64,000 nucleotides of DNA from NCBI GenBank assembly GCA_030647415.1, contig JAUSKB010000026.1:74894-138893 (forward strand), given 5' to 3'. This DNA is from a bacterium (GTDB lineage Bacteria > Patescibacteriota > Minisyncoccia > UBA6257 > GWB1-50-10). A program made the position numbers and the translations under genes. This document shows positions 1 through 55,129 of this stretch, in pieces; position 1 is the stretch's first letter; each line of letters begins with the position of its first letter. A model generated the notes under the pieces. The model did not search any database. It was not told the origin of the DNA and saw only the letters and a program-made list of their open reading frames with translations.

Positions 1-810
1 CGCGTCAGCGAGAATGAAGTCAAGGAGGGCCTCCTCGTACTCGAGGCCGCCGGACTTCACCGACACATCATAGTCCGCGAGACGGACCACCGCGTCCCCA
101 CGCACCTGGTAGGCGAGCGAGTTGAAGATTTTGCCGGGTTCGGCGCCGGCGGCGAATAATTGTTCGAGTAGCGCAAGTTTGCTACCGGCAGAACCTGCGC
201 CCGCGAGCATCCGCGCCACGCGAAACACCTCGTCGGTGGCGCCCCACGGGATGAGTTTTTGAAGGTCCGGCAGTGAAACGGGAATTGGAAGTCCGGCAAG
301 CGAAATCCTTTCAAGCTCGTTCACCGCCCGACACGACCGGTCCGGATGGGCGGTGAGATACTCAAGAAAAAACCGTTTCGCATCTGGAGCGAACGCGACG
401 GCGCGTGGCTTCGCCTCCTTCAAAACGAATGTGTCCAAAAACTTCCCCGCAAGTTCCAGAAATTCCTGCACCTTTGCGGGCGGCTCGGCAAGGAACGCAA
501 ACGGCTTCGGTAGCTTCCCCTGCTCCGACACGAGCAGAAAAAAATGTTTGTCGTCCCGGTGCTCTTTCAAAACCACCCGCCATACCTTCTCATTGATTGC
601 GGTCGCCGCTCGAACCACGAGCATCTTCGCCGAAGAAAAGAGTGATGGCTGGAGTATAAACTCGCAGGCGCGGACCCAGGCGTCCGGCTCCTCCTCAAAA
701 TCCACGTCCATGAGGTCCGCATGCGCATGCTTCGCCTGGAAGGTCGCGACGAGCTCGCGGAGCTTTCGGTTCCGGCGATACGAGTCGGGCCCCTGGAGGA
801 GAAGCACCAT
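1..810 (-). CDS. holA: DNA polymerase III subunit delta (HolA), partial; C-terminus continues beyond the window start
   Basis: Hand translation of the minus strand from ATG (complement of 808-810) gives MVLLLQGPDSYRRNRKLRELVATFQAKH..., a typical short HolA N-terminus. The ORF is open to position 1, so it is absent from the ORF track. Confidence 0.65.
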   Translation of the reverse strand, partial: MVLLLQGPDSYRRNRKLRELVATFQAKHAHADLMDVDFEEEPDAWVRACEFILQPSLFSSAKMLVVRAATAINEKVWRVVLKEHRDDKHFFLLVSEQGKLPKPFAFLAEPPAKVQEFLELAGKFLDTFVLKEAKPRAVAFAPDAKRFFLEYLTAHPDRSCRAVNELERISLAGLPIPVSLPDLQKLIPWGATDEVFRVARMLAGAGSAGSKLALLEQLFAAGAEPGKIFNSLAYQVRGDAVVRLADYDVSVKSGGLEYEEALLDFILADA

Positions 811-821: not shown

Positions 822-925
822 ACCCTGTTAGAAGTTTACATGCACACTACGCACCACTTCACGCGTCAGTGCTAAAAAATACTCCGCCGTCGCTGTAGTG
901 TATGTCTGTAAACTTCTAACAGGGT
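822..925. repeat. Family A palindromic element, copy A1 (ACCCTGTTAGAAGTTTACA ... TGTAAACTTCTAACAGGGT with a unique ~66-bp centre)
   Basis: 19-bp inverted ends read directly; the left end lies 11 nt from the holA start codon. Confidence 0.85.
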
Positions 926-954
926 GAACCCTGAAGATTTGCATACAATTTCAT

Positions 955-1050
955 CCTGTTAGAGTTTTACAGACATACAAATCCTATGAAAACGTGCTTA
1001 CCCGACAACAAACTTTTATATGCAATGGATTGTGTGTAAAACTCTAACAG
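955..1050. repeat. Family A palindromic element, copy A2 (CCTGTTAGAGTTTTACA ... TGTAAAACTCTAACAGG)
   Basis: Tandem with A1 in the divergent holA/yraN intergenic region; the right end lies 16 nt from the yraN ATG. Confidence 0.85.
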
Positions 1051-1066: not shown

Positions 1067-1435
1067 ATGAACGCGCGAGGGACGCTCGGACGGGAGGGGG
1101 AGGATATCGCCGCCGCATACCTGGTACAAAAAGGGTTCCACATCGTCACACGGAACGACCGGCGCCGCTGGGGCGAGCTCGACATTGTTGCCGTCGCACC
1201 GGACCGGACACTGGTGTTTGTCGAGGTGAAAACAATGCGCCCGGGGCGACTGAAACCGGAAGACCAGCTGTCAAAAGGCAAGCTCCGGCGGTTTGCGACG
1301 GCGGCGGGGCTCTACGCCGGAATCCACCAGGAGCTTGCGCGACCGGACCGCGGCTGGCGCATGGACGCGATTGCCGTCATCATCCCGCACGATGGCGCCG
1401 CTCCCAAACTCACCCATTACCTAAATGTCAGGTAA
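1067..1435 (+). CDS. yraN: YraN-family (UPF0102) predicted endonuclease
   Basis: 122 aa; GELDIVA...LVFVEVK motif is typical of the UPF0102/YraN PD-(D/E)XK fold. Confidence 0.7.
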   Translation: MNARGTLGREGEDIAAAYLVQKGFHIVTRNDRRRWGELDIVAVAPDRTLVFVEVKTMRPGRLKPEDQLSKGKLRRFATAAGLYAGIHQELARPDRGWRMDAIAVIIPHDGAAPKLTHYLNVR

Positions 1436-1513: not shown

Positions 1514-3367
1514 ATGACACCAAATCTTCGACAACTCTGGCGAAACATCGTCATCGTCATCCTCGCCCTTTCGTTCGTTTCACTCATCTTCTCGTTCCTC
1601 CTTGAGGATGGTGGTGCGCGCGCGGAAGAGCTCACGATGAACCAGGTGGTGGATCGGGTGAACGGCGGCGCGGTGCAGAAGATCACCGTCCAGGGGAATA
1701 GCTTGTCAATAGATCTGGTGGGTGGCGGCAAGGCAACCGCCCAGAAGGAGCGTGAGGTTGGACTCACGGAAACCCTGGTGAACTACGGCGTGAAGCCCGA
1801 CGCGCTCGCGAAGGTCGCGCTCTCCGTTGAGGATGAGGGTGGGTGGAACTACTGGCTCGGTATCCTTGTACCAACCATTCTCCCCATCATCCTCATCGTC
1901 ATCCTCTTTTCATGGATGCTTCGCTCCGCGCGCGCCGGCGCAAGCCAGGCGTTCTCGTTCGGCAAGGCGACCATTCGTCTCGTTGCACCAAGTAAGGACC
2001 GAATCACTTTTAAGGACGTGGCGGGGCTCAAGGAGGCAAAGGAAGAGATGGAGGAGGTGGTGGACTTCCTAAAGAATCCCAAGAAGTTCCTCTCGATGGG
2101 CGCGCGCATCCCCCGCGGCGTGCTCCTCATGGGGCACCCCGGCACCGGAAAGACGCTCCTTGCCCGCGCAGTCGCCGGCGAATCGAATGTCCCCTTCTTC
2201 CACCTCTCGGCATCCGAGTTCGTGGAGATGTTCGTGGGTGTGGGGGCGAGCCGAGTCCGCGACCTCTTCCAGAACGCCAAGAAGGCCGCGCCATCCATCG
2301 TCTTCATTGATGAAATCGACGCGGTGGGTCGCGAGCGGGGCACGGGCATGGGCGGCGGCCACGACGAGCGCGAGCAGACCTTGAACCAGATTCTTGTGGA
2401 GATGGACGGCTTCGAGCGGGAGACGAACGTTATCGTGATGGCCGCGACAAATCGCGCGGACATATTGGATTCCGCCCTCCTCCGACCCGGTCGGTTCGAC
2501 CGCCGTGTCGTGCTTGACATGCCAGACATCCAGGACCGCGAAGCGATTTTGAAGATCCACGCGAAGGAGAAGCCGCTCGCGAAGGACGTGAACCTGAACC
2601 AGATTGCCGTGCGTACCCCCGGGTTCTCGGGCGCTGACCTCGCGAACCTCATGAATGAGGCGGCTATTCTCGCGGCACGAAACGGCAAGAAGGAGATCGT
2701 TCAGCTTGACGTCCTGAACTCCATCGAGAAGGTGCTTCTGGGACCCGCACGCCGCTCCCGCGTCATTACCCCGCACGAGAAGCGGGTGACGGCGTACCAC
2801 GAGGCGGGGCACGCCTTGGTCGCCGCATCGCTCGCGGACGCCGACCCGGTCCATAAGGTCTCCATCGTCTCACGCGGCATGGCGGGCGGGTACACCATCA
2901 AGCTCCCGCTCGAGGAGCGCCGGCTCCGCACGAAGAAACAGTTTCTCACGGACCTCGCGGTCTCGTTCGGCGGGTACGTCGCGGAACTCTTGACGTTCGG
3001 CGACATTACCACCGGCTCATCGAACGACATCAGCCAGGCAACGGAGCTGGCACACCGGCTCGTCACCCAGTACGGCATGAACGAGACCCTGGGACCGCGC
3101 TCATTCGGCAAACAGAACGACCTCATCTTCCTCGGGCGGGAAATCACCTCTGGAAAAGATTATTCAGAGGAGGTTGGTGCGAAAATAGACGCAGAGGTGA
3201 ACCGGCTTATCGTGAACGCCGTCGCCCTCGCGAAGAAAATACTGACGAGGCAGAAGCGAACGCTTAAATCCATCGCCGAGCACCTCATTGAAAAAGAGAC
3301 TATTGAGTACGAGGAATTCAATGCACTCATGAAGACCGCGAAGCTGAAGCCGATGACGATAAGCTAG
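1514..3367 (+). CDS. ftsH: ATP-dependent zinc metalloprotease FtsH
   Basis: 617 aa; N-terminal TM segments, Walker [12 protein letters not shown]+ SRH, zinc site HEAGHAL. Confidence 0.95.
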
Positions 3368-3383
3368 AAGGTATTTATATAGG

Positions 3384-3410
3384 GAAAGCCCCGCCATTGG
3401 CGGGGCTTTC
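3384..3410. terminator. Rho-independent terminator hairpin (GAAAGCCCCGCCATTGGCGGGGCTTTC)
   Basis: Perfect GC-rich stem downstream of ftsH, between convergent genes. Confidence 0.6.
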
Positions 3411-3417
3411 CCTATCC

Positions 3418-3491
3418 TGGTCGGCCCGGCAGGAATCGGACCTACGTTCAATGTGTATAAGACATTTGCTCTACCATTGAGCTACGGGCCG
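3418..3491 (-). tRNA. tRNA-Ile (anticodon UAU), hand-folded
   Basis: Revcomp CGGCCCG TA GCTC AATGGTA GAGC A AATGT CTTATAC ACATT ... CGGGCCG A CCA: 7-bp acceptor, canonical D arm, 5-bp anticodon stem, loop CU-UAU-AC, CCA encoded. T-arm slightly atypical. Confidence 0.55.
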
Positions 3492-4144
3492 AATTTTTCC
3501 CGAACAGCTTTTAATCCCTGAAGTATCTTCTCAGCAACTCTAGCATTGCTTATTTTAATAGTACAGGTTCCATGGCCAAACGTGCCACGATTTATTGATT
3601 GTGAAGAATTTTTTTTGATATAGGGCTTCGTGAACTGCTCTCTCGGCAATTTAAGCGCGTGAGACCAATATGCTATCTCTGATTCTATATTCATATCACT
3701 GTAAAGATGCAGGTGTACGCGTATTTTTTCTTTCTCCAAATTAAGACAATGTGTTGTCCAATAGATAAAAAACTTCGGCACTGCAGGGTCGGTATTTGCA
3801 ACTTCCAGTTCCGAAACCCTCGTTTTTGAACCTTCTCCCCAGTAAAGGAAGAGTCCGGCTATGTACAAGTCTCTTTTCGAAAACGGGAAGATTTCATCTT
3901 TTTGAGACTCGTAAACTACTTGTAGCCGTAGTTCTTTTTTTCTAAACATCGTCTCACGGTATCGCTCAATACGAACTTCATTCCAATCGCGAAGAGCCCT
4001 GACCCGCTCCTTTGAGAGCGGGAGGCCACAAAGCCAGTAACTTAAGGTGCTTTTACTTACCCCTAGTTCTTTCTTGATCTGGCTATAGCTTTTTCCCTCT
4101 TTTCGCAAAGCTAATGCTCTCTGTTTGTCTTTTACTCGAGTCAT
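3482..4144 (-). CDS. HTH-domain protein with a degenerate LAGLIDADG-like motif (possible free-standing homing-endonuclease-like gene) in an AT-rich islet between two tRNAs
   Basis: 220 aa; N-terminal HTH (RKEGKSYSQIKKELGVSKSTLSYWL); motif DLYIAGLFLYWGEGSK resembles LAGLIDADG; local GC is clearly lower than surrounding genes. Confidence 0.35.
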   Translation of the reverse strand: MTRVKDKQRALALRKEGKSYSQIKKELGVSKSTLSYWLCGLPLSKERVRALRDWNEVRIERYRETMFRKKELRLQVVYESQKDEIFPFSKRDLYIAGLFLYWGEGSKTRVSELEVANTDPAVPKFFIYWTTHCLNLEKEKIRVHLHLYSDMNIESEIAYWSHALKLPREQFTKPYIKKNSSQSINRGTFGHGTCTIKISNARVAEKILQGLKAVREKFGP

Positions 4145-10926: not shown

Positions 10927-10940
10927 AAAAACCCAAAAAA

Positions 10941-10980
10941 TTCTCATTCTAACCCCGCCATGGCGGGGTTAGAATGAGAA
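10941..10980. terminator. perfect 19-bp-stem hairpin TTCTCATTCTAACCCCGCC-AT-GGCGGGGTTAGAATGAGAA
   Basis: Perfect palindrome directly after the glyA stop codon. Confidence 0.6.
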
Positions 10981-11027
10981 TTTTCCGCGCCTGTACACAG
11001 CGCGCCGGTCCGAATACCATTACCATC

Positions 11028-18146: not shown

Positions 18147-18215
18147 GGAGTACGTGTGTGCCGAGATGGAGAAACAGTTCTATTAAAGCTGAAAATGAGG
18201 TACCATGCAATTAAT

Positions 18216-18316
18216 CCTGTTAGAAGTTTACATACACATAGGACTGGTTGTAGGCGTGTCGGTGCCAGCACTTCCCTGTGGATATCACAAGTGTGTGTGG
18301 GTAAACTTCTAACAGG
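18216..18316. repeat. Family A palindromic element, copy A3
   Basis: CCTGTTAGAAGTTTACATACACAT ... GTGTGTGGGTAAACTTCTAACAGG. Confidence 0.8.
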
Positions 18317-18376
18317 TCGTTCGACTCTGAGAGTCTCGGACTCGAAGAGATAAACCCGCCACATAAAACCTAACCA

Positions 18377-19706
18377 ATGTCCCACTTGCAACGACTTTCA
18401 CCAAGTATATTCCGCGCCTATGACATCCGCGGGGAGTACCCCCGTGAGGTAAACGCCTATGTGGTAGAGACCGTCGCGGCGGCAATTGGCAGCTTGTTCC
18501 CGCCGGGACCCATGATTGTCGCGCACGACGGCCGCACCAGCTCGCCGGCGCTCGCATTCGCGGTGCTTCGCGGGCTTGCCTCGGTCCGCTCGCGGGCAAG
18601 GCTCATTGACCTCGGCACTACCACGACGCCGATGTTCTATTTTTTTGTCGAGCGCCTAAAGGCCGCGGGCGGCATTATGGTGACCGCATCGCACAACCCG
18701 AAGACTATGAATGGCCTGAAGGTGGTCGGGGCGCACGCCGTTATGATTCCCGGTACTGAACTTGCGGCGTTGGTCCATAAAAAATCCCATGCTCAAAACG
18801 CGTAACTATGCAGGCGAGTATGCCTTGTTCCTCCGCACCTTTCTCGCTCCCGCCCGCCCGCTCCGGGTCGTCTTCGATTTCTCGAACGGTCCTGCGGGCA
18901 TAATCGTCCCCGACGTGGTCCGGAGCGAACCGAACCTCACCGCGTTTTTCGTTGACCGGGCGCTCTCGGGAAACTTCCCGGGACACGGACCAAACCCACT
19001 CGCCGGCGCCGGTCTCCTACACCTCCATACGGAGGTTCTTGCCCGGCACGCGAACCTGGGGCTCATCTTCGACGCGGACGGCGACCGGGTCTTCGTTGTG
19101 GACGAGCGTGGCCGGTGGGTGCCACCCCACCTCGTGGCACACCTCCTTGCGCGGAGGGCGGCAACGCCCTTCGTATTCGATACCCGGACGGCGCTCGCAC
19201 TCCGGTACGCGGGTCTTTTCGAACCCGCGGCGGCAATTCTCTCCCCAGTCGGCTCCGTCTACATAAAGGAACGGATGCGGGCGAGTGGGGCGGGGTTCGG
19301 CGCCGAGTATTCCGGCCACTACTACTTCAAGGAGTTTCTCTCCGTGGATTCGGGCATCCTCGCCGCCGTGAACGTCCTGAATGCCGTCTCCCGTCTTCCC
19401 TACTCGCTCGCGGAGTTCGTCGACCTTGCCCCCCGCGACGTCCGGTTCGAGGAGCGGAATATGCCCACGAAGAAGCCACGCGTCACCGTCGCTGCGCTCA
19501 CGAGCGCGCTCCGGCCGGGCGCGCGACGCGTCACGCCCGCCGCCCGGATGATAGGCGTCCAAGACGGCATGGTCATCGAGGCGGATGCATGGTTCGCCAC
19601 GGTCCGCCCCTCGAACACCGAGCCATTGGTCCGCGTCTGCGTCGGTAGCATCGAACCGCGCATCACCAAGGAAAAGCGCGTGGTGCTCGCTGCGTTTTCG
19701 GTATAG
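18377..19706 (+). CDS. phosphomannomutase/phosphoglucomutase, interrupted by a +1 frameshift at an A6 run (ORFs 18377-18805 and 18762-19706); possible pseudogene or sequencing error
   Basis: N-terminal part carries the active-site loop TASHNP; C-terminal part matches PGM/PMM domains III-IV; 142+314 aa equals a normal PMM length; the frames meet at CATAAAAAATCC (18776-18787). Confidence 0.65.
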
Positions 19707-19711
19707 TAACC

Positions 19712-20407
19712 ATGCACCACGGGACCCACACGGACATTCTCATCGTCTCCGACATCCACCTCGGCTCCCCGGTGTGCCGCTCCAAGGCGCTCTTACGGTT
19801 CCTGAAAACGGTGAAGTTCCGGACGCTCATCCTGAACGGCGACATCTTCGACGATTTGAACTTCAACCGGCTCTCGCACGACGACTGGGAGCTTCTCGCC
19901 CACCTCCGCGAGCTCTCGAAACTGAACCACCACACCGCGGTCATTTGGATTGCGGGGAACCACGACGGTGCGGCGGCGACCCTCTCGCGCCTCATCGGCG
20001 TGCCGGTCGTAAATGAGTACGTCTTCTACTGGAACGGCACAAAGTGCCTTGCCATCCACGGCCACCAGTTCGACCGCTTCCTCTCCAAAAATATTGTCAT
20101 CTCGACTATCGCGGGCGCTATCTACCTCGCGATCCAGCGCATCGACGGCCAGGAACAGCATGTCGCGCGTCTCGTGAAACGCTTCTCGAAGTCTTGGCTC
20201 CGCGTCTCCGCGAAGGTGATGAAGGGCGCCGTTCGGTACAACCTCGTTTTCAAGCGTGCCGCCTACGTCTTCTGTGGCCACACGCACAAGGAGCATGAGG
20301 AGGTTGTGCACGGCGTCGAGTACCTAAACAGCGGCTGCTGGACGGACATCCCCTCCGCCTACATCACGCTCGACGAGCAGGGTGCGAGGGTGCATACGAT
20401 TGGGTAA
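19712..20407 (+). CDS. metallophosphoesterase (calcineurin-like; LpxH-like family)
   Basis: 231 aa; SDIHLG, GDIFD, GNHD, GHTH motifs. Confidence 0.8.
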   Translation: MHHGTHTDILIVSDIHLGSPVCRSKALLRFLKTVKFRTLILNGDIFDDLNFNRLSHDDWELLAHLRELSKLNHHTAVIWIAGNHDGAAATLSRLIGVPVVNEYVFYWNGTKCLAIHGHQFDRFLSKNIVISTIAGAIYLAIQRIDGQEQHVARLVKRFSKSWLRVSAKVMKGAVRYNLVFKRAAYVFCGHTHKEHEEVVHGVEYLNSGCWTDIPSAYITLDEQGARVHTIG

Positions 20408-20420
20408 GAAAAAGATTCAC

Positions 20421-20523
20421 CCTGTTAGAAGTTTACAGACACTCATTGAGTGTGTAGTGTAGCGTGTTATCTAAAACAACATGTGTAACATGAACACAGC
20501 GTGCGCGTAAACTTCTAACAGGG
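20421..20523. repeat. Family A palindromic element, copy A4, with conserved outer flanks TAAGAAAAAGATTCACCCTG... and ...CAGGGTGAAAGAAAAAGGAGGG
   Basis: The same outer flanks occur at copy A6. Confidence 0.85.
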
Positions 20524-20613
20524 TGAAAGAAAAAGGAGGGGAGGAGGGTTTAAAAAATGAGATATAAATGATGGAGATACTAGAAACCAGCATATATGCT
20601 GGTGTTTTTTACT

Positions 20614-20644
20614 ATTGACATTTATGTATAATTGGTGTTAACAT
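20614..20644 (+). promoter_or_regulatory. conserved promoter-like sequence ATTGACATTTATGTATAATTGGTGTTAACAT (second copy)
   Basis: Preceded by hairpin ACCAGCATATATGCTGGT plus T-run; heads the second low-GC islet. Confidence 0.5.
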
Positions 20645-20693
20645 ATAACCAGCGTTTTAGAATAAATCGTTCAAAAAACTAAAGGAGGCTGTA

Positions 20694-21008
20694 ATGAATT
20701 CATTCGGGATAGTCGAGAGGGTTGAGTACCTCACGCGTCTAGCTGACACTGACGATGGTGAACAACGGGTACTCACGGTTATTGAAGGTAAACACCTCGG
20801 CGGCAAACAAATCATCGTGTGGGCAGAGTGGGCCCACGGACCATTCCCTAGCTTTGGAAATTTCACGGTCCATAGCAAATCCCTCGACCCTGCAATCTAT
20901 GCAAAGGTCCAGGTGACGGACGCCGCAGAGGGAAAGTTTGAGGGGAAGTCTCTCTTTGGATCACCAGAGGCATATAAGAGATTTAGAGAAACCATTTGGT
21001 CCGAGTAG
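20694..21008 (+). CDS. hypothetical protein (low-GC islet)
   Basis: 104 aa; SD AAAGGAGG upstream. Confidence 0.45.
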   Translation: MNSFGIVERVEYLTRLADTDDGEQRVLTVIEGKHLGGKQIIVWAEWAHGPFPSFGNFTVHSKSLDPAIYAKVQVTDAAEGKFEGKSLFGSPEAYKRFRETIWSE

Positions 21009-21183
21009 TTCAGGCCAAAAGTACTCCCCCACACAATTTTGTGTCCGGGGGATTTTTCTTTCTCACGTCAGCTATCACCATGCCGCGCCGATTCTTTTTA
21101 CGAAGCGGAAAACTATGGAGGTCGAACCCTAATACCCAGATGGGAGGTTTTAGGGGTTAGGGGAAGCTCACAAAACAGGGAAT

Positions 21184-21427
21184 TATCGATTTATCGGGTT
21201 TATCGGGTTAACCGGGAAAACCTGATAAATCAAATAAACACGATAAACCCGATAATGCGATGAAACCTACATAGTCATTTTTTGACCGTTCCGGACCCCC
21301 GAAATCTGTTTCAAAGTGTTTTGTGTAAAACATTTTTGGTGGGAGTATACTGGTGTAAAACATTTCTAAAACAAGCCGATAGGTAGACCGTTATTGATAT
21401 ATTTAGGTGTAAAACACTGTAAAACAT
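21184..21427. other. origin-like noncoding region: TTATC/GATAA (DnaA-box-like) cluster with 15-bp inverted repeat TTATCGGGTTTATCG / CGATAAACCCGATAA, plus four GTGTAAAACA direct repeats (iterons)
   Basis: Repeats read directly at 21193-21207, 21241-21255, 21333-21342, 21353-21362, 21408-21417 and 21419-21427; AT-rich; lies between convergent genes. Confidence 0.4.
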
Positions 21428-21498
21428 CAATTTGTTTACCGTTAAACACTTTGACCCAAATTTTAAGGGCGACCACGTGGTCGCCCTCGAACTACTGC

Positions 21499-22503
21499 CT
21501 ATGCTGCCCTCGCTCCGGCAACAAGCTGGAGCTTCCCGTACCCCTGCTTTCGTCCATGCCGATTTCCAGAACCTCCTCCATTACTGGAGAGTTTCTTGAT
21601 TATAAGGTTCCAAATTTCGTCAGGGACGCTACCCCGTCGATACTTGTTTCCCACAAAATGCGAGAATGACCCCGTGACCTCCTCAACCGAGAACACTTTC
21701 TCCGAGAAGGCAATGCGGATGAAGTTCGACTCAAACGCGTTTCTCCCGGCGAAGAACGATATCGTTCCCGGCTTGTTCTCCTTCACCATCCGGAAGGTCA
21801 ATGTTGACTCCCTGACCTTTCGGGTCCGAAGCCCGTCGACCTTCCCGAGCAACGCCTTGTATCCTCTGTGGGCATCAAGAAAGAGGGTTACTAGATCCTT
21901 GATACTCTCCTTCTCTGGAAACAACGGTTCGTACGACACGTTCCGCGTTCCGGGGACGACCACTCCAAAAATCTTATTCGACGGTTTAAGATTTTCCCGG
22001 ATGGTCGCTTCCTCCAATGCGACCTCGTACATTCTTCGGATATTCGCGAGCTCGAGTTCGATTGCCTGCGGGGGTAGCCGCAGGGCACTTGAACATCGTT
22101 CATTAATCGACTTCAAGAACTTTCGAAGCCCGCCGAACGCGCCGATCCCAAGCAGTTCATTGCGCTCGAACTGTACATCGCCGACCACCTCTCCCGTGAG
22201 CGTGAACTCTTGGAAGGTGTCGGAGACATAGCTAGCTAGTTCCCAAATCCGTCGATTTATTCGATCCCGGACCTGATAGATTTTGTCTTCGCACTCGCAA
22301 CGCGTGAGAGATGCGTCGCTCTTCAGTGCGAGAATCTGGCAATTTAGTTCCTGCGCGGATGCAAAGAACCCTCGCATCATACGTAGGTACTTCTTGAATG
22401 CCGCCACAGCCGCGACATTCTCGGGATTCAGGAGATACTCCTGAATGATTTCGGCGTCCTCGTGCGCGAGGCGCTCGATCATTTCTTTTTTTGTTTTTTG
22501 CAC
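21499..22503 (-). CDS. hypothetical protein (low-GC islet)
   Basis: 334-aa ORF with no recognisable motif. Confidence 0.45.
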   Translation of the reverse strand: MQKTKKEMIERLAHEDAEIIQEYLLNPENVAAVAAFKKYLRMMRGFFASAQELNCQILALKSDASLTRCECEDKIYQVRDRINRRIWELASYVSDTFQEFTLTGEVVGDVQFERNELLGIGAFGGLRKFLKSINERCSSALRLPPQAIELELANIRRMYEVALEEATIRENLKPSNKIFGVVVPGTRNVSYEPLFPEKESIKDLVTLFLDAHRGYKALLGKVDGLRTRKVRESTLTFRMVKENKPGTISFFAGRNAFESNFIRIAFSEKVFSVEEVTGSFSHFVGNKYRRGSVPDEIWNLIIKKLSSNGGGSGNRHGRKQGYGKLQLVAGARAA

Positions 22504-22697
22504 TGCTTCCTCCCCGGGCCTGGTGGGGCCCTTTATTGGTGGTGATTTTGTGAATTAGATACTAAAAACAGAATATCACTTAGTGGCTAATATGTCAAAT
22601 GTAGTTCAATATTTGGAAGTCAGACTACCTCCGCATACAACGAGCATGAATCCGGTAGAGCGAATCGCGGATTCGTATTCGCACCTCTCTATACAAA

Positions 22698-22733
22698 AAA
22701 ATGTTCGATTTACGAAATCGAACATTTTTCACT
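22698..22733. terminator. terminator hairpin AATGTTCGATTT-ACG-AAATCGAACATT flanked by A/T runs
   Basis: Perfect 12-bp stem downstream of rpsA. Confidence 0.6.
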
Positions 22734-22758
22734 ATCCTCTTTCTCTTTTCCTTTTTTT

Positions 22759-23874
22759 CTATTTCTTCAGCTTCAGGACGATACGCCGCTCCTCGGGTTT
22801 CACGCTCTCGACGGTGAAGTCATAGGACGTGCCAGCCGCGAGGGACTTCTTCATCTCCTCCACGCCGCCGAAGTCCGTGACGTGCACCTGACCCTGGATA
22901 TCTCCGCCGAGGTTCACCGTCGCGCCGAACGGGTTGAAGCTGTAAACCGTGCCTGACACCATTTGCCCCTCGGCATAGCGACCAATGCCCGCGAGCCACG
23001 GGTCGTCTTTGAGCGCCTTCAGGGAGAGTGAGACCTTGCCGTCCTTGATGTCCATAATCTTTGCCGTTACCACCTCATCCACCTTCACTACCTCCTTCGG
23101 GTTCTCCACGACCCGCCACTCGAGTTCCGATACATGGATGAGCCCCTCGATCGCCGGGTTGTCGGTAAACTTCACGAACGCCCCGAAGTCCGCCACGCCG
23201 GAGATAATGCCCTCAATCACCTGCCCCACCGCATACCCCGTGAGAAGCTCCTTCGTGTTCTCTTCGACCGCCTCCCGTTCCGAGACGATGAGCTTTGCCG
23301 TCCGCGGGTTCGCCTCGATGATCTTCACCGAGATTTCCTGCCCGATGAGGCCCTGGAGGGCCTGGGTAAGCGCCGTCTTATCCTCTCCAATCGTCTTGGG
23401 ATAGTGGTCGCCCACGAGCTGTGAGAGTGGGAGAAATGCGGCAAGCTGCCCGACATTCGCGGTGAGCCCGCCTCGATTTGCGCCGTTGATTTTCACCATG
23501 AATGGCTGGTCAGCACCCTGTAGCTCAGCTATTTCCGCCCACGCCTTCTGGCGGCTCGCCTCGGAAACCGAGAGTTCCACGAACCCGTCCTCGTTGTCTG
23601 CGGAAATGACTTTCGCGTGTATCGAATCGCCGGGCTTCAAATTCCGGACGACGTCGCGGGCATTCTGAAGCTCGCCGCGGTACACCACGCCCGTCCCATG
23701 GCGGCCGAGGTCGACGAGGAGCCGATTCGCGCCTGAGCCGAGCACCACGCCCTCCACAAGGTCGCCCGCTTTCAGAAGGACGAGCGCGCCGGGAGAGGTC
23801 TTCAAAAATTGCGCGAGCGCATTGTTTATGTTTTTCGTTGGTCGCACGAGGTCCACACTACCACACGACTCCAT
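22759..23874 (-). CDS. rpsA: 30S ribosomal protein S1 (four S1 domains)
   Basis: Repeated S1-domain motifs; start chosen at the internal Met (MESCGS...NALAQFLK), because the ORF-track start 23922 adds an implausible Cys-rich 16-aa extension and overlaps the divergent gene. Confidence 0.75.
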   Translation of the reverse strand: MESCGSVDLVRPTKNINNALAQFLKTSPGALVLLKAGDLVEGVVLGSGANRLLVDLGRHGTGVVYRGELQNARDVVRNLKPGDSIHAKVISADNEDGFVELSVSEASRQKAWAEIAELQGADQPFMVKINGANRGGLTANVGQLAAFLPLSQLVGDHYPKTIGEDKTALTQALQGLIGQEISVKIIEANPRTAKLIVSEREAVEENTKELLTGYAVGQVIEGIISGVADFGAFVKFTDNPAIEGLIHVSELEWRVVENPKEVVKVDEVVTAKIMDIKDGKVSLSLKALKDDPWLAGIGRYAEGQMVSGTVYSFNPFGATVNLGGDIQGQVHVTDFGGVEEMKKSLAAGTSYDFTVESVKPEERRIVLKLKK

Positions 23875-23911
23875 TGCAGCGCAAGCGAACGTGCGGTAGC
23901 ATGACGTATGC

Positions 23912-24484
23912 ATGGTCATCACCTACCACGGGGAGGGTTCGTTTCGCCTGCAGGCGGGTGCGGCGGTAGTGCTCGTGGACCCCGAGCACCAGCGCTCCTT
24001 CAAGGGCGCGCACTGCATCATCGCGACCACGCGGCCGGCGCACGTCGACCCGCCCGCCGCGGGAGATGACGCGCCGTTCTGGATCGACCATCAGGGCGAG
24101 TATGACCTTGGGTCGGTCATGGTCCACGGCGTCACGGCCGAGTGGGACCGTGACGACGAGCACACCGCGTACCGCGTGACTATGGACGACATCTCAATCG
24201 GTCTCCTCGGCTTCCTCACGGCGGATCCGGAACCGGCGGTCCGCGAACTACTCGCAGGTGTTGACATCCTCATTGTGCCCGCGGGTGGCAAACCGTTCCT
24301 CACAACCGCGGCCGCGGCGAAGCTCGCCCGCCAGCTTGAGCCGTCCATCGTCATCCCCTCGCTCACGGACCCAAAGCCACTCGTAAAGGAGTTGGGAAAC
24401 GGCGGAGCACCGGAGGAGCGACTCACGATCAAGAAAAAGGACCTCGTCTCAAAGGCGGTCCGCGTCGTCGTTCTGACATCATGA
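23912..24484 (+). CDS. MBL-fold metal-dependent hydrolase (UPF0173-like)
   Basis: 190 aa; N-terminal MVITYHGEGSFRL typical of this family. Confidence 0.5.
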   Translation: MVITYHGEGSFRLQAGAAVVLVDPEHQRSFKGAHCIIATTRPAHVDPPAAGDDAPFWIDHQGEYDLGSVMVHGVTAEWDRDDEHTAYRVTMDDISIGLLGFLTADPEPAVRELLAGVDILIVPAGGKPFLTTAAAAKLARQLEPSIVIPSLTDPKPLVKELGNGGAPEERLTIKKKDLVSKAVRVVVLTS

Positions 24485-24490
24485 CGCCCC

Positions 24491-24934
24491 ATGCTATTCC
24501 GCACCACATGGAGAGCCTACCTGCGACGCATTCGAGCATCGAGCGACGCCACAAAGCGGCGATGGATTGCCGTCGTGGGATTGGGCTCGGGAGGACTCGT
24601 CATCGCCCTCTGGGTCATCTACCTCTCCTCCACGCTGCCCGCCCGACTGGACAGTCGTTCGGGCGGGCCCACCCGGACGAATACGCCTCCGCTCGCGACC
24701 ACAACGGCGTCTGAATCGCCCCAGGAGCGAAGGGGGGATGTGTTTACGAACGGCGTCCGAGGCATCCGGGATATGATGGCAAAACAATGGCAGGGCGCAC
24801 GAAACACTATCGACAGTTCCTGGCAATCGCTGGGGGCGCTTATCACCGAGGGAAACGAATTCTCGGTGACGGGAACCACCACGCCCGCTTTGCCGGAATC
24901 GAGTGAGTCGAGCGAGCCACCGCACACACCATGA
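24491..24934 (+). CDS. hypothetical membrane protein
   Basis: 147 aa with one TM helix; overlaps the gyrA start by 4 nt. Confidence 0.4.
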
Positions 24935-27876
24935 CCACTGCAGAACCAAAGAAAACGCCCGGCGGCTCCATCGAGCCCCGCGAGATTGTGGACGAGCTCC
25001 GGCAGTCCTACCTATCGTACGCCATGTCGGTTATCGTCTCGCGCGCCATCCCGGACGTCCGTGACGGCTTGAAACCGGTGCAACGGCGCATCCTCTGGGC
25101 GATGTGGGACACCGGACTCACCCACAGCGCGAAGTTCAAAAAGTCCGCGAATGTGGTCGGCGAGGTGCTCGGCAAGTACCACCCGCACGGCGACGTTGCG
25201 GTCTACGACACCATGGCGCGTATGGCGCAGGACTTCTCGCTCCGCGCACCGCTCGTCGACGGCCAGGGAAATTGGGGGTGTTTTACTAAAGATACAAAAG
25301 TAAAACTCGCCGACGGTCGAAACGCGAGCTTTAGTGAACTCGTAGAAGAACACCGCCAGGGCAAGAAAAACTATACCTTTGCCGTTAATTCGGCTGGGCT
25401 CATTTCCATCGCGGAAATAAAAAATCCGCGCCTCACAAAAAAGAATGCAGAGCTCGTCAGGGTGATTTTGGACAATGGCGAGAAGATTCGTTGCACGCCG
25501 AATCACCGCTTTATGTTAAAAGACGGCTCCTACAAAGAGGCACACTACCTCACAAACGGGAATAGTCTTATGCCCCTATACGAGAAGTTGTCCACAAAAG
25601 AGGGCCGATTAAACAGCGACCCACGCCCGGTTTTATATGAACTAAATAAAAACCATAAAGTTGTTAGGGTTGAAAAGTTAGCGGAGCAGGAGGATGTTTA
25701 TGATTTAACGATTGATAAATATCATAATTTTGCGCTCGCGGCTGGTGTCTTTGTGCACAATTCGATCGACGGCGACAGCCCGGCGGCAATGCGTTATACT
25801 GAGGCTAGGCTTACAAAAGTCGCCGAGGAGCTCTTGACGGACATCGAGAAGGAGACGGTCGACTGGGGACCAAACTACGACAACTCCCGCGTGGAGCCGC
25901 TCGTCCTGCCGGGGAAGCTCCCGAACCTCATTGTGAACGGCGCGGTCGGCATCGCGGTCGGTATGGCAACCTCCATCCCGCCGCACAACCTCGGCGAGGT
26001 TATAGACGCCATCGCGTACCTTGCCGAGCACGGGGATGCCACGATTGAGGAGCTTATGCAGTTCATCCCGGGTCCCGACTTCCCGACGGGCGGCGTAATC
26101 TACGACACGCGGGCGATCGCCGAAGCCTACCGGACCGGCCGCGGCGCCATCGTCATGCGCGCCGTCGCCGTCATCGAGGAGCGGACGGCGCGAGGGCACC
26201 AGATCGTCGTCACCGAAATTCCCTACCAGGTGAACAAGTCGGACCTCGTCACCTCCATCGCCGAGCTCGTCACGGAGAAGCGAGTGGAGGGCATCCGGGA
26301 CCTCCGCGACGAATCCGATCGCGATGGCCTGCGAATCGTCATCGAGCTGAAAAGCGACGCGGCGCCGCAAAAGATTTTAAATCAGCTCTACAAGTACACC
26401 GAGCTCCAGAAGAGTTTCCACTCAAACCTCCTCGCATTGACCGGCGGACTCCAGCCGGAGGTGCTCTCCCTGAAGGATATCCTCGCCGCATACCTCGACC
26501 ACCGGAAGCTGGTCGTGAAGCGGCGAACAGAGTTTGACCTCCGAAAGGCGACGGAGCGGGCACATATCCTCGAGGGGCTCGTGAAAGCCTTGGACCACAT
26601 CGACCGGATCATCGAGACCATCAAGAAGTCCAAGGACCGCGAGGATGCCCAGCGGAACCTCATCGCGAAGTTCAAGTTCTCGGAGCTCCAGGCGAACGCC
26701 ATCCTCGAAATGAAGCTCGCCGCGCTCGCGGCGCTCGAACGCAAAAAGCTCGAAGATGAACTTACGGAAAAGCGGAATATCATCGAGGAGCTCACTGCGC
26801 TCCTCAAGAACCCGAAGAAGATGCTGGGGCTCATCGTCACGGAGCTCGGCAATCTCAAGGCCGCCTTCCCGAGCGAGCGGCGCACGAAGGTGGTTCCGCA
26901 CGGGCTCACGGAGTTCCGCGAGGAGGACCTGGTGCCGCAGGAGGAGGCAATCGTCACGCTCTCGGTGGACGGCTACATCAAACGGATGCCGCCCGATACC
27001 TTCCGGGCGCAACGGCGCGGCGGGAAGGGGCTCATCGGGTTCGATTTGAAGGACGAGGACCATATCCGACAGCTCATGGCGGCACGAACCCACGATAACT
27101 GCCTCTTTTTCACGGACCGGGGGAAGGTTTTCCAGACCAAGGTGTTCGAGATACCCGCCGCGGAGCGGGCGGCTAAAGGCAAACTCGTGCACAACTTCCT
27201 CGAAGTCCCACCGAACGAGCATATCACGGCGATGGTCGCCTACGGCGGATCGTCGAGCGGGTACCTCACCATGGTGACGCAGGGCGGAACCATCAAGAAA
27301 ACGCCGCTCAAGGACTTTGTGAGCGTCCGGCGGACGGGCATTATCGCCCTCAGGCTCCAGCCGAACGACATTCTTGAGTGGGCCCAGCTCTCCTCCGGCG
27401 GCGACGAGATGCTCCTCGTGACCTCCGCCGGTCAGGCGATCCGGTTCCGTGAAAAGGATGTCCGTCCAATGAGCCGCACCGCGGGCGGCACGCGCGCAAT
27501 CCGCCTGAAGCGAAAGGACCAGGTCGCCGGCGTCGGCATCATACCCAAGGAGGCCGGCGCCGCCGACCGGAAGGGGCTCCGCGTGGTCGCCGTCATGGCC
27601 CGCGGGTTCGCGAAGCAGACGCCGCTCTCGGATTACAAGGTACAGCACCGCGGCGGCGGCGGCATCAAGACCGCGAAGGTGACGGAGAAAACAGGGCCGG
27701 TGATCGCCGCGGCGATCGTCGGACCGGAGACGGAGGTTGTGCTCGCCTTCTCGAAAAAAGGCCAGGCATTGAAAACACCGCTCTCGAACGTCCGCATCGC
27801 GGGTCGCGCGACACAGGGCGTCCGCATTATGAACGTCGAGGCGGATGATGCGCTGATTGGGGTACTCTGTCTGTAG
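24931..27876 (+). CDS. gyrA: DNA gyrase subunit A, containing a mini-intein
   Basis: 981 aa; conserved GyrA blocks ([15 protein letters not shown]-terminal beta-pinwheel repeats); 161-aa insertion between GNWG and SIDGD. Confidence 0.95.
25279..25761 (+). mobile_element. mini-intein (161 aa, no homing-endonuclease domain) within gyrA
   Basis: Begins Cys ([13 protein letters not shown], block A), TPNH block B, ends VFVHN followed by Ser+1; DNA is markedly AT-rich relative to the flanking gyrA sequence. Confidence 0.8.
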
Positions 27877-27918
27877 GTAACAAACAACCTACGACACACA
27901 ACTAACAACCTATTTATC

Positions 27919-28019
27919 CTGTTAGAAGTTTACAAATAATCATTTTCCTATGAATTTGATGGTTATATTCAAAACCAAAACTATGCAGGAATACAAATTT
28001 TGCGTAAACTTCTAACAGG
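27919..28019. repeat. Family A palindromic element, copy A5; the right end CTAACAGG is immediately followed by the ATG at 28020
   Basis: CCTGTTAGAAGTTTACAAATAAT ... TTGCGTAAACTTCTAACAGG-ATGAACCTC. Confidence 0.85.
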
Positions 28020-29324
28020 ATGAACCTCACAAAGAAACAGCTCATCATCCTCGGCGGTATCGTCCTTGTAGTCATCATTCTGGTGCTCATGGGGCTCGGT
28101 ATCATCCCGGGACTGAAGACTGGCCCGGTCACCATGAAACCGGTTTCGCTCACCGTATGGGGCGTAGAGGACGCCGTACAGGAGCTGCAACCCGCGGTGC
28201 AATCGTTCGCCAGGAACCACCCCGGTGCCACCGTCACCTACTGGCAGTTTACCGACACCGAGACGTACCACACCACCCTCCTCGAGGCGCTCGCCGCGGG
28301 CACGGGACCGGATATCTTCGCCATACGGAACACCGAGGTGATGCGCCATGCCTCGAAGCTCGTCGCAATGCCGAAAGAGCGGCTCTCGCTCCTCACTCTC
28401 CGAAACACGTTCGCCCCCGTGGTGGAGCGTGATTTTGTGGTAAACGGCGGGGTCGTTGCGCTGCCGCTTTCCATAGACACGCTCTCACTCATCTATAATC
28501 GGGACCACTTCAACGAGGCGGGCATCGTTTCTGCTCCCGCCACCTGGGACGACCTCGTCGCCATTGCGCCGCGGCTTTCGGTCGTTGACGACTCGCGCCG
28601 GGTCACTCGCGCTTCCATAGCGCTTGGCGGTTCGGGTAGTACCATACCGCGCGTCAGCGACATTATTTCGGCATTGATGCTTCAGGGTGGCATCGTACCC
28701 GTCGGGCCCGACTGGGGCGGCGCCGGTTTCGCAACCCGCGCAGGATATGACGCGGTGAACTTCTACCTGCAGTTTTCGAACACCGGAAGCCCGCTCTACA
28801 CCTGGAATGAGGGGATGCCGAATGCTGTGGATGCGTTCGCACAAGGACGGGTCGCTATGATTATCGACTACGCCCGCGCACTGCCGGACATCCGGGAGCG
28901 AAACCCGCTCATGAACTTCGCCGTCGCACCACTCCCCCAGCAGAAGGGGGCGGAGCGGTCAAAGACCATGGCCTCCTACTGGGGCTATACGGTTTCCCGC
29001 CAATCGAAGCAGGCCCGGCTCGCGTGGGACTTCATCGTGGAAACAGCAACGAACCCGCAGGTGGTCAGTGCATACTTGAATGCTTCAAAACGCCCGCCGG
29101 CGATACCGAAATTCATCGAAGCGTACCGCGACAATCCCAACCTCGCCGTATTCGCCCAGCAAACGCTCACCGCCGATTCCTGGCCGATGCCGAACCGGGA
29201 CCTGGTAGGGGGCATATTCTCCGACATGGTGACGACGGTGCTTGAGAATCGGGCGAGCGTCGAAACGGCCGTAGGCCGCGCGCAGAGCGATATTTCGCGA
29301 CTCATCGGGTCGCGGCCGCGGTAA
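28020..29324 (+). CDS. extracellular solute-binding protein (ABC transporter, family 1), membrane-anchored
   Basis: 434 aa; N-terminal TM anchor, SBP_bac_1-like fold; starts MNL, identical first 9 nt to the gene at 54068. Confidence 0.65.
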   Translation: MNLTKKQLIILGGIVLVVIILVLMGLGIIPGLKTGPVTMKPVSLTVWGVEDAVQELQPAVQSFARNHPGATVTYWQFTDTETYHTTLLEALAAGTGPDIFAIRNTEVMRHASKLVAMPKERLSLLTLRNTFAPVVERDFVVNGGVVALPLSIDTLSLIYNRDHFNEAGIVSAPATWDDLVAIAPRLSVVDDSRRVTRASIALGGSGSTIPRVSDIISALMLQGGIVPVGPDWGGAGFATRAGYDAVNFYLQFSNTGSPLYTWNEGMPNAVDAFAQGRVAMIIDYARALPDIRERNPLMNFAVAPLPQQKGAERSKTMASYWGYTVSRQSKQARLAWDFIVETATNPQVVSAYLNASKRPPAIPKFIEAYRDNPNLAVFAQQTLTADSWPMPNRDLVGGIFSDMVTTVLENRASVETAVGRAQSDISRLIGSRPR

Positions 29325-29333
29325 GCCATTGGG

Positions 29334-29861
29334 ATGTTATACTTACCATTGATGAAATCCTATTTTGCGGTCTCTCTGCTTTTAGTTGGACTGGCTATTG
29401 CCATACCCGTATTCGCCGGCGTCCAAACTGCTAACGCACAAGGGAGCTGCGGCGGCGTGGGGCAACGTTGCTGCCAACCTGCCGAAGCACCCCACCAGTG
29501 CATTACCGCTCTCGTTTGCAGTAACTTCACAAGCCCCATCTGCGAGACCGGAATATGCGCGTGCAGGGGAGTCGCGCCGCCCCCACCAAACCCGAGCACC
29601 ATCACACTCATAAACCCCCTAAGCGGCACGTCCGACGTGCGCGGTCTCATCGAGCGGTTTGTCACCATCCTCCGCGATTTTGCGACGCCCATTGCGGTCC
29701 TCATGATTCTCTTTGGGGCGTTCCGAATCCTCACTGCCGCTGGGGACCCCGCGAAGTTCGAGACGGGGAAAAAGATACTCCTGTACACCGCCATAGGGTA
29801 TGCTATAATCTTTGTCGGGTGGGGAATCACCTCGATTATCGAGAGTCTGCTCTCTTCGTGA
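29334..29861 (+). CDS. VirB2/TrbC-like pilin-type protein with an N-terminal 8-Cys domain
   Basis: Signal peptide, Cys-rich domain, then two hydrophobic helices separated by AAGDPAKFETGKK. Confidence 0.45.
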   Translation: MLYLPLMKSYFAVSLLLVGLAIAIPVFAGVQTANAQGSCGGVGQRCCQPAEAPHQCITALVCSNFTSPICETGICACRGVAPPPPNPSTITLINPLSGTSDVRGLIERFVTILRDFATPIAVLMILFGAFRILTAAGDPAKFETGKKILLYTAIGYAIIFVGWGITSIIESLLSS

Positions 29862-29916
29862 TGATTCCTTATCACACTGTAAAGGTCGGTTTTCCTTCAC
29901 GGTTCAATCCTATCAC

Positions 29917-30279
29917 ATGAAACTATCAACATTCGGAAAGTTTGCTGCCGGTATTGTCTTGGCATCCGCTATCGCGACTCCGTTTGCGGTGCTCGCGCAG
30001 CCGGATCCGACACTCACCGACTTCTCGCTCTCTGGTATTTCAGGCATTTCGAAGCTCGGTGGCAAGATTGGGGGCTGGATGCTCGGCATCCTCCTGGTCC
30101 TCGCGGTCATCTTCATCCTCGCCGCGGCGTTCCTCTACCTGACCTCCGGCGGCGACGAGGCAAAGGTGGGAAAGGCGAAGAGCTACATTATCTACGCCAT
30201 CGTCGCGGTCGTCGTGGGCATCCTCGCGAAAACCATCATCACACTCGTCCAGAGTCTTGTTAACACCGCCGGAACCTAA
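29917..30279 (+). CDS. VirB2/TrbC-like pilin-type protein (paralog 2)
   Basis: Signal peptide; helix-SGGDEAKVGKAK-helix architecture. Confidence 0.45.
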   Translation: MKLSTFGKFAAGIVLASAIATPFAVLAQPDPTLTDFSLSGISGISKLGGKIGGWMLGILLVLAVIFILAAAFLYLTSGGDEAKVGKAKSYIIYAIVAVVVGILAKTIITLVQSLVNTAGT

Positions 30280-30281
30280 TT

Positions 30282-30644
30282 TTGTTAAACCTGTTTAAGG
30301 CACTCGGACCTACCATGAGACATGCAGTTCTTCGTGCTTTCGTTGCCGCTGCGGGTTTTCTTCCCGCGGCGGTTGCGTATGCGCGGGACTACCCCACGAT
30401 AACCAATTACAGCGACCTCATCCGCGTTATAAACACCGCGGCGGATTGGCTCTTCGGAATACTGCTTTCACTCGCGGTCATCTTCGTCATCTTCGCCGCC
30501 TACCGATTCCTGAACGCCGCCGGCGATCCGAAGTCGCTTGAGACCGCAAAGATGACGATTCTGTACGCCATCGTCGCCGTGGTGGTCGCCGTTCTCGCAA
30601 AGACACTCATCGGACTGGTCGACTCATTCTTCTCGTCCGTATAA
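30282..30644 (+). CDS. VirB2/TrbC-like pilin-type protein (paralog 3)
   Basis: Helix-NAAGDPKSLETAKM-helix architecture. Confidence 0.45.
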   Translation: MLNLFKALGPTMRHAVLRAFVAAAGFLPAAVAYARDYPTITNYSDLIRVINTAADWLFGILLSLAVIFVIFAAYRFLNAAGDPKSLETAKMTILYAIVAVVVAVLAKTLIGLVDSFFSSV

Positions 30645-30761
30645 AAGGAGGGGGACGCAGAGGAAAAAGGGGGGTGAACCCTCCTTTTTCTTTTATCATC
30701 CCGTCAGAACGTTCCCGCGCCGCTTCCCCAAACGCCCTAAGTATGGCTGAATAGAGGCTGG

Positions 30762-32141: not shown

Positions 32142-32154
32142 GAAAAAGGATTTA

Positions 32155-32255: not shown

Positions 32256-32277
32256 TAAAAGAAAAAGGAGGGATTTA

Positions 32278-35463: not shown

Positions 35464-35467
35464 CTTC

Positions 35468-55125: not shown

Positions 55126-55129
55126 CATT

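Follow-up and report, generated by a model that had tools for sequence, protein, structure and literature searches.

Repeated elements in the intergenic DNA of the window

The window analysed here, a 64-kb stretch of contig JAUSKB010000026.1 (assembly GCA_030647415.1, positions 74,894 to 138,893), comes from a member of the Patescibacteria (candidate phyla radiation, CPR), and its intergenic regions contain a family of elements of approximately 100 bp that have conserved inverted ends (arms) and variable centres. RecA and other proteins encoded in the window are closest to those of Jorgensenbacteria, Brennerbacteria and Paceibacteria-type metagenome-assembled genomes (MAGs), with 75-87% identity. 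Elements were tallied by a loose arm search combined with direct reading of the sequence; this yielded 12 complete elements, one of which is nested in another, and one solo right arm. When one mismatch is allowed, the motif ACCCTGTTAGA is present 20 times where 0.48 would be expected, and 8 instances of the paired pattern CCTGTTAGANNTTT-N55-85-AAANNTCTAACAGG were counted, with none expected. Taken together, the elements account for 2.1% of the window and for about 17% of its non-coding DNA, or roughly one copy per 5 kb. All copies are intergenic, none lying inside a credible gene, and their G+C content ranges from 29 to 49% as opposed to 57% for the window. They separate genes in divergent, tandem and convergent arrangement, and the genes that flank them are ordinary housekeeping genes (holA-like, ftsH, ftsK, the recA region, gyrA, pnp, rpsO and ksgA). 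Every copy listed in a first-pass annotation made from the sequence was recovered within a few bases of its given position, and the description of a single, exclusively intergenic family whose ends are conserved while its middles are not is supported.

Two copies arranged in tandem separate the divergent holA-like (1-810, minus strand) and UPF0102 (1067-1435, plus strand) genes. The first spans positions 823-924 (core 824-923) and carries arms of the AG/CT subtype; the second, at 954-1052 (core 955-1051), is of the GT/AC subtype and its centre is 67% identical to that of a copy found at a different locus (L010, 2150-2250). Copies of the AG subtype lie between the divergent ftsK and phosphoglucomutase genes (18215-18317, core 18216-18316) and past a metallophosphoesterase gene (20420-20523, core 20421-20522), the latter with GAAAAAG repeats outside its flanking pentamers. 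Both are missing in the syntenic loci L029, L032 and L041. Also of the AG subtype is the copy between gyrA and a solute-binding-protein gene (27917-28020, core 27918-28019), whose last base is the A of the latter gene's ATG; the same site is unoccupied in the close relatives L026, L035 and L036. A further tandem arrangement is found past the PMT glycosyltransferase gene, where copy A (GT subtype, 32155-32255, core 32156-32254) is followed by copy B (AA/TT subtype with one right-arm mismatch, 32278-32379, core 32279-32378), which adjoins a convergent terminator hairpin.

In the second half of the window, a decayed GT-subtype copy with four arm mismatches (38007-38107, core 38008-38106) lies upstream of rpsO. 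Between pnp and the next gene, a GT-subtype copy (41296-41506, core 41297-41505) is split by a GA-subtype copy with CCCG...CGGG termini (41379-41482, core 41380-41481). The 209 bp of the outer element are thus composed of 101 bp, the 102 bp of the nested copy and a 6-bp direct repeat, GCGTGC, the inner 4 bp of which are CGTG. The solo right arm, a truncated copy at 45766-45789, is found exactly 6 bp (GTACAC) upstream of a GT-subtype copy with a TTTTGCA variant (45795-45895, core 45796-45894), itself 4 bp upstream of the ksgA/rsmA start; truncated partner arms at exactly 6 bp from a full copy occur in five places. At 53967-54068 (core 53968-54067), an AG-subtype copy shares its last base with gene 54068-55072, as the A of the ATG. 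In L040 the orthologous site is empty, and in L039 it is occupied by a copy with an unrelated centre. A degenerate copy with CCCG...CGGG termini (60615-60716, core 60616-60715) is flanked by ATGCGT and ATGCGC, of which the inner 4 bp (TGCG) are repeated, and its right repeat forms the start codon of gene 60716-61927. Finally, the TGAA at 55583-55586 (plus strand), inside the ATGAAT start of a PrgI-family gene, is an empty target site where the metagenome contig L027, from a relative, holds a 100-bp copy.

Anatomy of arms and centres

To describe the element, 36 independent copies from the window and from elsewhere were aligned. The arm has the form Y-CCTGTTAGA-NN-TTTAC. Positions 1 to 9 (CCTGTTAGA) and 12 to 14 (TTT) are invariant or nearly so and positions 15-16 (AC) are mostly kept, while the base directly outside the arm is a pyrimidine on the left and a purine on the right. 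The terminal inverted repeat measures 17-18 bp, with a weaker subterminal likeness reaching to about 25 bp, and conservation drops from the termini inwards, as ends bound by a transposase would be expected to show. Complementarity between the two arms extends from position -1 to position 16 in nearly all copies and falls to background beyond approximately 17-22. Position 18 shows a systematic difference between left and right; in the clade of the window, the element has a polarity, conferred by a weak subterminal signature that reads CRCGCAC at one end and GTGTNTG at the other. By eye, with no dedicated palindrome test, self-pairing in the arm CCTGTTAGARNTTTAC does not exceed 4 bp (CTGT/ACAG) and is limited to some copies.

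The most interesting feature is the conserved complementarity of the arms. Positions 10 and 11 differ among copies (AG, GT, AA, GA or AT) yet remain complementary within each copy, with 70 of the 72 cells forming Watson-Crick pairs (AU 17 and GC 17 at alignment columns 16/57; AU 15, UA 14 and GC 7 at columns 17/56). Changes on both sides are also seen at positions -1, 3 and 15, so that the conserved arm complementarity surmised in the first-pass annotation holds at five covarying positions, although the covariation tool itself warns that related sequences can exceed shuffle controls. Both strands fold equally well, into a stem of 20-30 bp (at least 20 bp in every copy) closed by an unstructured loop of 40-60 nt. 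Pairing in the stems is perfect and uninterrupted, with no bulged bases, and G-U pairs are almost absent from their core. Since G-U pairs are so rare and neither strand folds better than the other, the constraint appears to act at the level of DNA rather than RNA. The elements face either way with respect to the genes, and no strand asymmetry is seen consistently. A scan of the window against Rfam 15 matched only two tRNAs at gathering score. Altogether, these results speak against the idea, put forward in the same annotation, that the copies are hairpin-forming RNA elements.

Element length is 99.9 ± 2.9 bp, ranging from 90 to 106 (n = 42), which leaves no room for a gene-sized open reading frame (ORF). 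The k-mer enrichment search for a shared centre motif found none present in more than about a third of the copies. Most pairs of centres are no more alike than shuffled sequences (median identity 0.52 against 0.50 for the null). A minority shows graded similarity: by global alignment, 40 pairs exceed the 99.9% null level where 0.8 are expected, an excess to which the conserved subterminal bases contribute, as only 17 nt were trimmed per arm. The centres of the copies at 27918 and 53968, 58% identical, exemplify this lower level of relatedness. The initial description of the centres as unique therefore holds by eye, though not absolutely.

Insertion, movement and distribution

The site at the start of the PrgI-family gene shows the insertion directly. 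In the window, the empty site (...ATTTATCTGTATGAATTTTCAGG) reads ATTTATCTGT ATGAAT TTTCAGG at positions 55570-55595. The corresponding sequence in L027, whose PrgI-family gene is 86% identical, reads ...ATTTATCTGT ATGAA T[CCTG...100 bp...CAGG]A TGAAT TTTCAAG, with the element flanked by duplicated (A)TGAA(T). At this site alone, duplications of 4, 5 or 6 bp are indistinguishable. Three low-GC copies, located before the genes for ribosomal protein L36, a response regulator and a third protein, read A-TGAA-C[...]G-TGAA-A and are compatible with a duplication of 4 bp only, which settles its length. The Pfam profiles of the genes behind these copies begin at residue 1-3 of the GTG start. We infer that an original ATGAAA start received an element of the form C-CCTG...CAGG-G with duplication of 4 bp. 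Likewise, in a Moranbacteria MAG (L002), a copy sits between the TGA stop of a porA-like gene and the GTG start of a porB-like gene, as would result from a 4-bp duplication of an overlapping ATGA junction. Copies ending at 28020, 54068 and 60716, and several others elsewhere, supply or abut the downstream start codon.

Of 41 independent copies, 14 have perfect 4-bp direct repeats directly outside the Y/R termini, where 3.2 would be expected (5000 permutations, maximum 9, P<0.0002). The duplicated targets are TGAA (five times), TATA (three times), TCAA (twice), TTCA, TAAA and two non-consensus sequences, CGTG at the nested copy and TGCG at the copy at 60616. No exact empty site could be recovered for the window's own copies in L029, L032 and L035, where the intergenic DNA is too diverged or rearranged.

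Comparison with related loci revealed differences in occupancy. L029, L032 and L041 (18-21 kb each, syntenic, with RecA proteins 87, 83 and 85% identical, respectively) contain no copy where the window has four. A closer relative, represented by L035, L036 and L026, is about 82% identical to the window at the DNA level and syntenic with it over gyrA, the solute-binding-protein gene, the pilin genes and the PMT gene. It lacks a copy upstream of the solute-binding-protein gene (window 27918) and has copies at two sites unoccupied in the window, the gap between the binding-protein and pilin genes and that between the pilin and PMT genes. Four arms or copies were counted within 7.7 kb of a close relative. 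The suggestion of mobility made in the first-pass annotation is upheld by these presence/absence differences, together with the empty and filled versions of one site and the target duplications.

Beyond these loci, a search of species-representative genomes with the strict pattern returned single copies in four only (one labelled 'bacterium', the others Moranbacteria, WOR-3 and Saccharibacteria), and the metagenomes yielded 24 contigs of 36-62% G+C, 13 of them from one groundwater metagenome in which relatives of the window are present. One of the 24, L022, carries a different repeat and was excluded from all counts; it consists, at 2760-3231, of tandem units of about 25 nt (ACCWGTTAGATGTYTGC) and of a perfect palindrome, 102 nt long, with which the contig ends. 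The family is therefore found outside the window, the point on which its reality had been made to depend. Neither the viral contigs nor the plasmid collection gave a match to it. Because copies are missing in syntenic relatives and occur singly in other phyla, the distribution of the family is patchy and crosses phyla, with a broad host range and a recent expansion in one narrow Patescibacteria clade.

The centres move with their arms. That of the copy at 32156 recurs, 70-79% identical, in L035 (4611-4708, behind the binding-protein gene) and in L015 (402-499), in both cases with all 34 arm positions identical. A further centre is common to L006 and L018 (85%), where its flanks are unrelated. 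Overall, when one centre lineage is found at different loci of syntenic genomes, arms are identical (34/34) and centres are 70-85% identical. Centres thus behave as heritable sub-lineages and not as hypervariable loops; judging from these sequences, they are inherited and travel with the arms, as many old sub-lineages, each present in low copy number. A search for centres captured from other DNA gave no match in about 300 kb of related non-element sequence. Conversely, in a pair of copies that share their left flank (L010 2023 and L021 124) the arms have decayed to 28 of 34 identical positions, and several copies elsewhere are truncated. The decay of this one resident pair and the truncated copies suggest that the arms are maintained since only intact copies keep moving, by selection for mobility rather than for any need of the host.

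Some independent assemblies break inside copies: this is the case of L034, from this strain, which ends at 6210, and of the relative's L026/L038, which end at 2264. L026 also has, at its end, a tandem duplicate that the longer assemblies L035 and L036 lack.

A few other features of the window deserve mention. A second repeat family, with inverted arms of about 40-50 nt (TCTAAATCCGAAACYCTAAATCCTAAACAAATTCGAA), is found at 55075-55580, 56092-56221 and 56885-57010, as well as in L014 (1568-1624). One pair of these arms flanks a gene for a 121-aa 'four helix bundle protein' (TIGR02436), in a block of about 500 bp that is missing in L027 and thus resembles a further mobile insertion; the arms of two other pairs are only 44-56 nt apart. 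GyrA (24931-27876, 981 aa) contains an intein (PF14890, residues 125-277) that is probably absent from the 819-aa proteins of the syntenic L029 and L032. A tRNA-Ile gene at 3418-3491 (minus strand) has the anticodon TAT; bacteria generally read AUA with a modified CAU anticodon, and TAT is unusual. Between two tRNA genes, ORF 3482-4144 (minus strand, 220 aa) shows only a faint N-terminal HTH_23 domain and a faint similarity to the N-termini of IS630/IS21 transposases. This ORF may encode either a regulator or what is left of a transposase, and no arms of the family studied here lie nearby. The LysM-domain ORF at 44907-45623 encloses inverted repeats of 27-32 nt (45334-45516) that are 94-100% complementary, which is odd for a coding sequence. 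Perfect palindromes around CCCCGCCA-TGGCGGGG, at 3379-3415 and 10937-10984, are probably bidirectional intrinsic terminators; the ordinary terminators of this genome would therefore be quite unlike the elements under study.

Proposed mode of mobilization and relation to known elements

A non-coding unit of about 100 bp with terminal inverted repeats, a 4-bp target duplication, insertion polymorphism and nested, tandem and truncated copies points to a miniature inverted-repeat transposable element (MITE). It is probable, in our judgement, that the elements form a MITE family with a unit length of about 102 bp, made up of non-autonomous terminal-inverted-repeat DNA transposons mobilized in trans. 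Bacterial MITEs are likewise non-coding, measure about 100-150 bp, have terminal inverted repeats of about 20-26 bp and short target duplications, and form dispersed intergenic copies, often at gene boundaries, with insertion polymorphism and nested or tandem arrangements. In families such as Correia of Neisseria, RUP of Streptococcus and ERIC/IRU, interiors are homogeneous and a parent insertion sequence (IS) can usually be recognised. Unlike these, the elements described here have interiors at the level of shuffled sequence, centre lineages in low copy number and termini found across phyla; variable arm positions stay complementary, and there is no known parent IS. The first-pass contention that the family differs from classical MITEs is thus correct as concerns the lack of a homogeneous interior, but size, terminal repeats, target duplication, insertion polymorphism and the inheritance of the centres all fit a MITE.

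In the mechanism that we envisage, a transposase encoded elsewhere would bind both ends as duplex DNA. Target duplications are suggestive of an enzyme of the DDE type. Insertion would occur into short T-rich targets (TGAA/TTCA, TCAA, TATA, TAAA) through a 4-bp staggered cut, repair of which would duplicate the target. If only the ends were needed, the interior of about 60 bp would be free to drift, and old low-copy sub-lineages with different centres could coexist while still moving; copies would persist only in intergenic DNA. Moreover, as the element ends in a purine and TGAA is the favoured target, an ATGAA start would be rebuilt as GTGAA or ATGAA on the right, while a TGA stop would be kept on the left. 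Such rebuilding of start and stop codons would explain why copies are tolerated where they touch a start codon or separate overlapping genes.

Several observations weigh against this interpretation. Pfam and NCBIfam searches of about 40 window ORFs and of 10 ORFs beside the low-GC copies revealed no transposase, in agreement with the first-pass remark that the window encodes neither a transposase nor an integron integrase; the recombinase remnant that the same annotation placed next to one copy was not reproduced, no copy-adjacent gene having a recombinase or transposase domain. A full-length element with these ends was found neither in the window and the fetched loci nor in the plasmid and viral collections, and no burst of near-identical copies was seen. 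The covariation at arm positions 10-11 is not required by plain recognition of duplex ends, and length is tightly constant though the centres have diverged to saturation. As many as 26 of the 41 copies have no direct repeat at any offset, nor do these 26 have a target duplication outside their flanking pentamers. As a rule, the 5 bp that precede CCTG and those that follow CAGG are inverted in the window's clade (TTYAY on the left, RTRAA on the right). Finally, two orthologous sites are occupied both in the window and in a relative by copies that have the same arm subtype and flanks and unrelated centres: upstream of gene 54068, centre identity between the window and L039 is 0.48, and downstream of the PMT gene the window has two copies where L035 has a single, different one. 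Such sites would reflect either re-use of a few tolerated targets after turnover or exchange of centres via the arms.

A possible origin of the inverted flanks, namely template switching that converts a TNNA duplication by making a quasi-palindrome perfect, is no more than an idea, as left and right flanks are uncoupled in the individual copies: perfectly inverted flanks were counted 8 times where 5.7 would be expected (P=0.18), and the partner of TTTA is TGAA more often than TAAA. The copies at 20421 and 32156, which also count among the observations that fit a MITE poorly, have repeats of 7-8 bp, GAAAAAG(G), farther out. They share AAGAAAAAG flanks, confirming the extended common flanks with a direct repeat that the first-pass annotation had described for two copies. 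The motif AGAAAAAGG occurs 8 times in the window against 0.7 expected (at 20528, 24432, 30683, 32141, 32260, 54952, 58850 and 63558), usually within AAGGAGG-type leaders; it is a common intergenic motif here that flanks two elements.

The covariation, the constant length, the unrelated centres at orthologous sites and the inverted flanks sit uneasily with a MITE family. Together with the GAAAAAG(G) repeats and the truncated partner arms at 6 bp, they keep alive, at low probability, the alternative that the elements are mobile but recognised through their structure, in which case an enzyme would read the 17-18-bp stem of a folded single strand and arm complementarity itself would be under selection. 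Candidates for such an enzyme would be an HUH/Y1 transposase (as in IS200/IS605 or the REPIN-RAYT systems) or a tyrosine recombinase (as with attC). Double-sided changes that preserve pairing at five arm positions, with only 2 of the 72 cells at positions 10-11 non-Watson-Crick, a stem of at least 20 bp on either strand of every copy, and flanks that are inverted and not direct in most window copies are all consistent with this alternative. The target duplications and the sequenced empty site speak against it: to our knowledge, neither HUH single-strand transposition nor integron recombination leaves target duplications. Furthermore, the covariation could be inherited sub-family structure. On balance, we regard recognition of structure as unlikely.

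The two systems that such recognition brings to mind differ from the present elements in several respects. REPINs are REP doublets that form hairpins and are mobilised by RAYT transposases (PMC3337134, PMC3116915); in Pseudomonas fluorescens SBW25, no two of their spacers are identical (PMC3337134). They are the closest analogue for conserved inverted ends in which every spacer is different, and the likeness, which favours recognition of structure, includes two conserved inverted units around a non-conserved spacer, an extragenic location, the occurrence of singlets, doublets and clusters, and narrow spacing classes. However, the REP unit is an imperfect palindrome, which our by-eye reading does not find in the arms, and the REPIN spacer continues the hairpin, whereas pairing here stops at about 17-22 bp and the centre does not extend the stem. 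Target duplications are a further difference, and no Y1 or RAYT gene was found within the 64 kb searched. As to the attC sites of integrons, which the first-pass annotation had invoked, they measure 57-141 bp, have conserved inverted ends and a variable centre, with complementarity better conserved than sequence, and lie between genes, just upstream of start codons. But attC reads RYYYAAC...GTTRRRY, whereas the order here is opposite on both strands, GTTAGAR...YTCTAAC (5'-CCTGTTAGAR...YTCTAACAGG-3'). There are no extrahelical bases, the target is duplicated, the window contains no integrase, attI or cassette array, and the neighbours are housekeeping genes, syntenic with relatives that lack the elements, in place of cassettes; the comparison with attC is not supported.

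In a related proposal, the arms would do more than bind a transposase: they would form a recombination site that is read by its structure, as a DNA hairpin or cruciform, or a portable homology through which centres of about 60 bp are swapped between loci, defining a new class of micro-cassettes. This would explain the compensatory arm changes, the fixed 100-bp length and the orthologous sites with unrelated centres; we regard it as about as unlikely as recognition of structure. If true, it would mean a new mobile class distinct from MITEs, REPINs and attC, with its enzyme in Patescibacteria.

Still less probable is that the elements are retained for a function in the host, the arms being sites for a host protein or forming an RNA hairpin (an RNase III site, a terminator or a stabiliser) that insulates transcription units. 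It is true that all copies are intergenic, many exactly at gene boundaries, that arms are far better conserved than centres, that a read-through transcript would carry a perfect duplex of at least 20 bp, and that the same sites are occupied in two relatives despite differing centres. Yet syntenic relatives have the same genes without any copy, presence and absence differ between close relatives, and arms decay in the resident pair and are lost from truncated copies. A scan of about 20 kb (window 18150-38140) matched neither a sigma-70 promoter nor an intrinsic terminator inside the six copies that it covered, the genome has ordinary GC-rich terminator palindromes elsewhere, and the near-lack of G-U pairs is unlike selection at the RNA level; moreover, the elements are oriented either way relative to genes and have no Rfam match. 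A last proposal is that each copy is a small-RNA gene, with the arms as a handle and the centre of about 60 nt as a guide or specific payload. Constant length and unique centres between conserved pairing ends would suit such a gene. However, there is no promoter consensus in the six copies scanned, no folding strand preference and no conserved centre structure, no associated effector gene was found, centres match nothing in about 300 kb of related sequence, and those of the same lineage (70-85% identical) evolve at roughly neutral rates. We consider this proposal highly improbable.

Returning to the MITE family, a lead to its transposase may come from its ends. The CC(C)T...A(G)GG termini and the 4-bp duplication at TTAA-like sites recall the ends of the IS1380/piggyBac group. 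Most targets here (TGAA, TCAA, TAAA, TATA, TTCA) are one step from TTAA, TTAA itself not being among the duplicated ones. The remaining arm sequence is not alike, and no transposase of this type was found, though no search was aimed at one. A literature search retrieved no description of the motif or of such elements in Patescibacteria, and no Rfam family corresponds to them. In our best reading, they are a previously undescribed family of a familiar type of selfish DNA, a MITE, and not a new type of recombination site.

In conclusion, the family combines the appearance of a MITE with unusual population features: very diverse centres in low copy number, termini that cross phyla, paired variation in the arms and re-use of sites. 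CPR genomes are very small and regarded as poor in mobile DNA; in such a genome, a single 100-bp family that fills about 17% of the non-coding DNA stands out, and it probably fragments or confuses short-read metagenome assemblies. The family marks recent genome dynamics in one clade, and its insertions flush against start codons would illustrate a simple route to tolerance. The cross-phylum termini offer a search key for the cognate transposase, and two testable features, the covariation of the arms and the re-use of sites, could point to a mechanism that is less ordinary.

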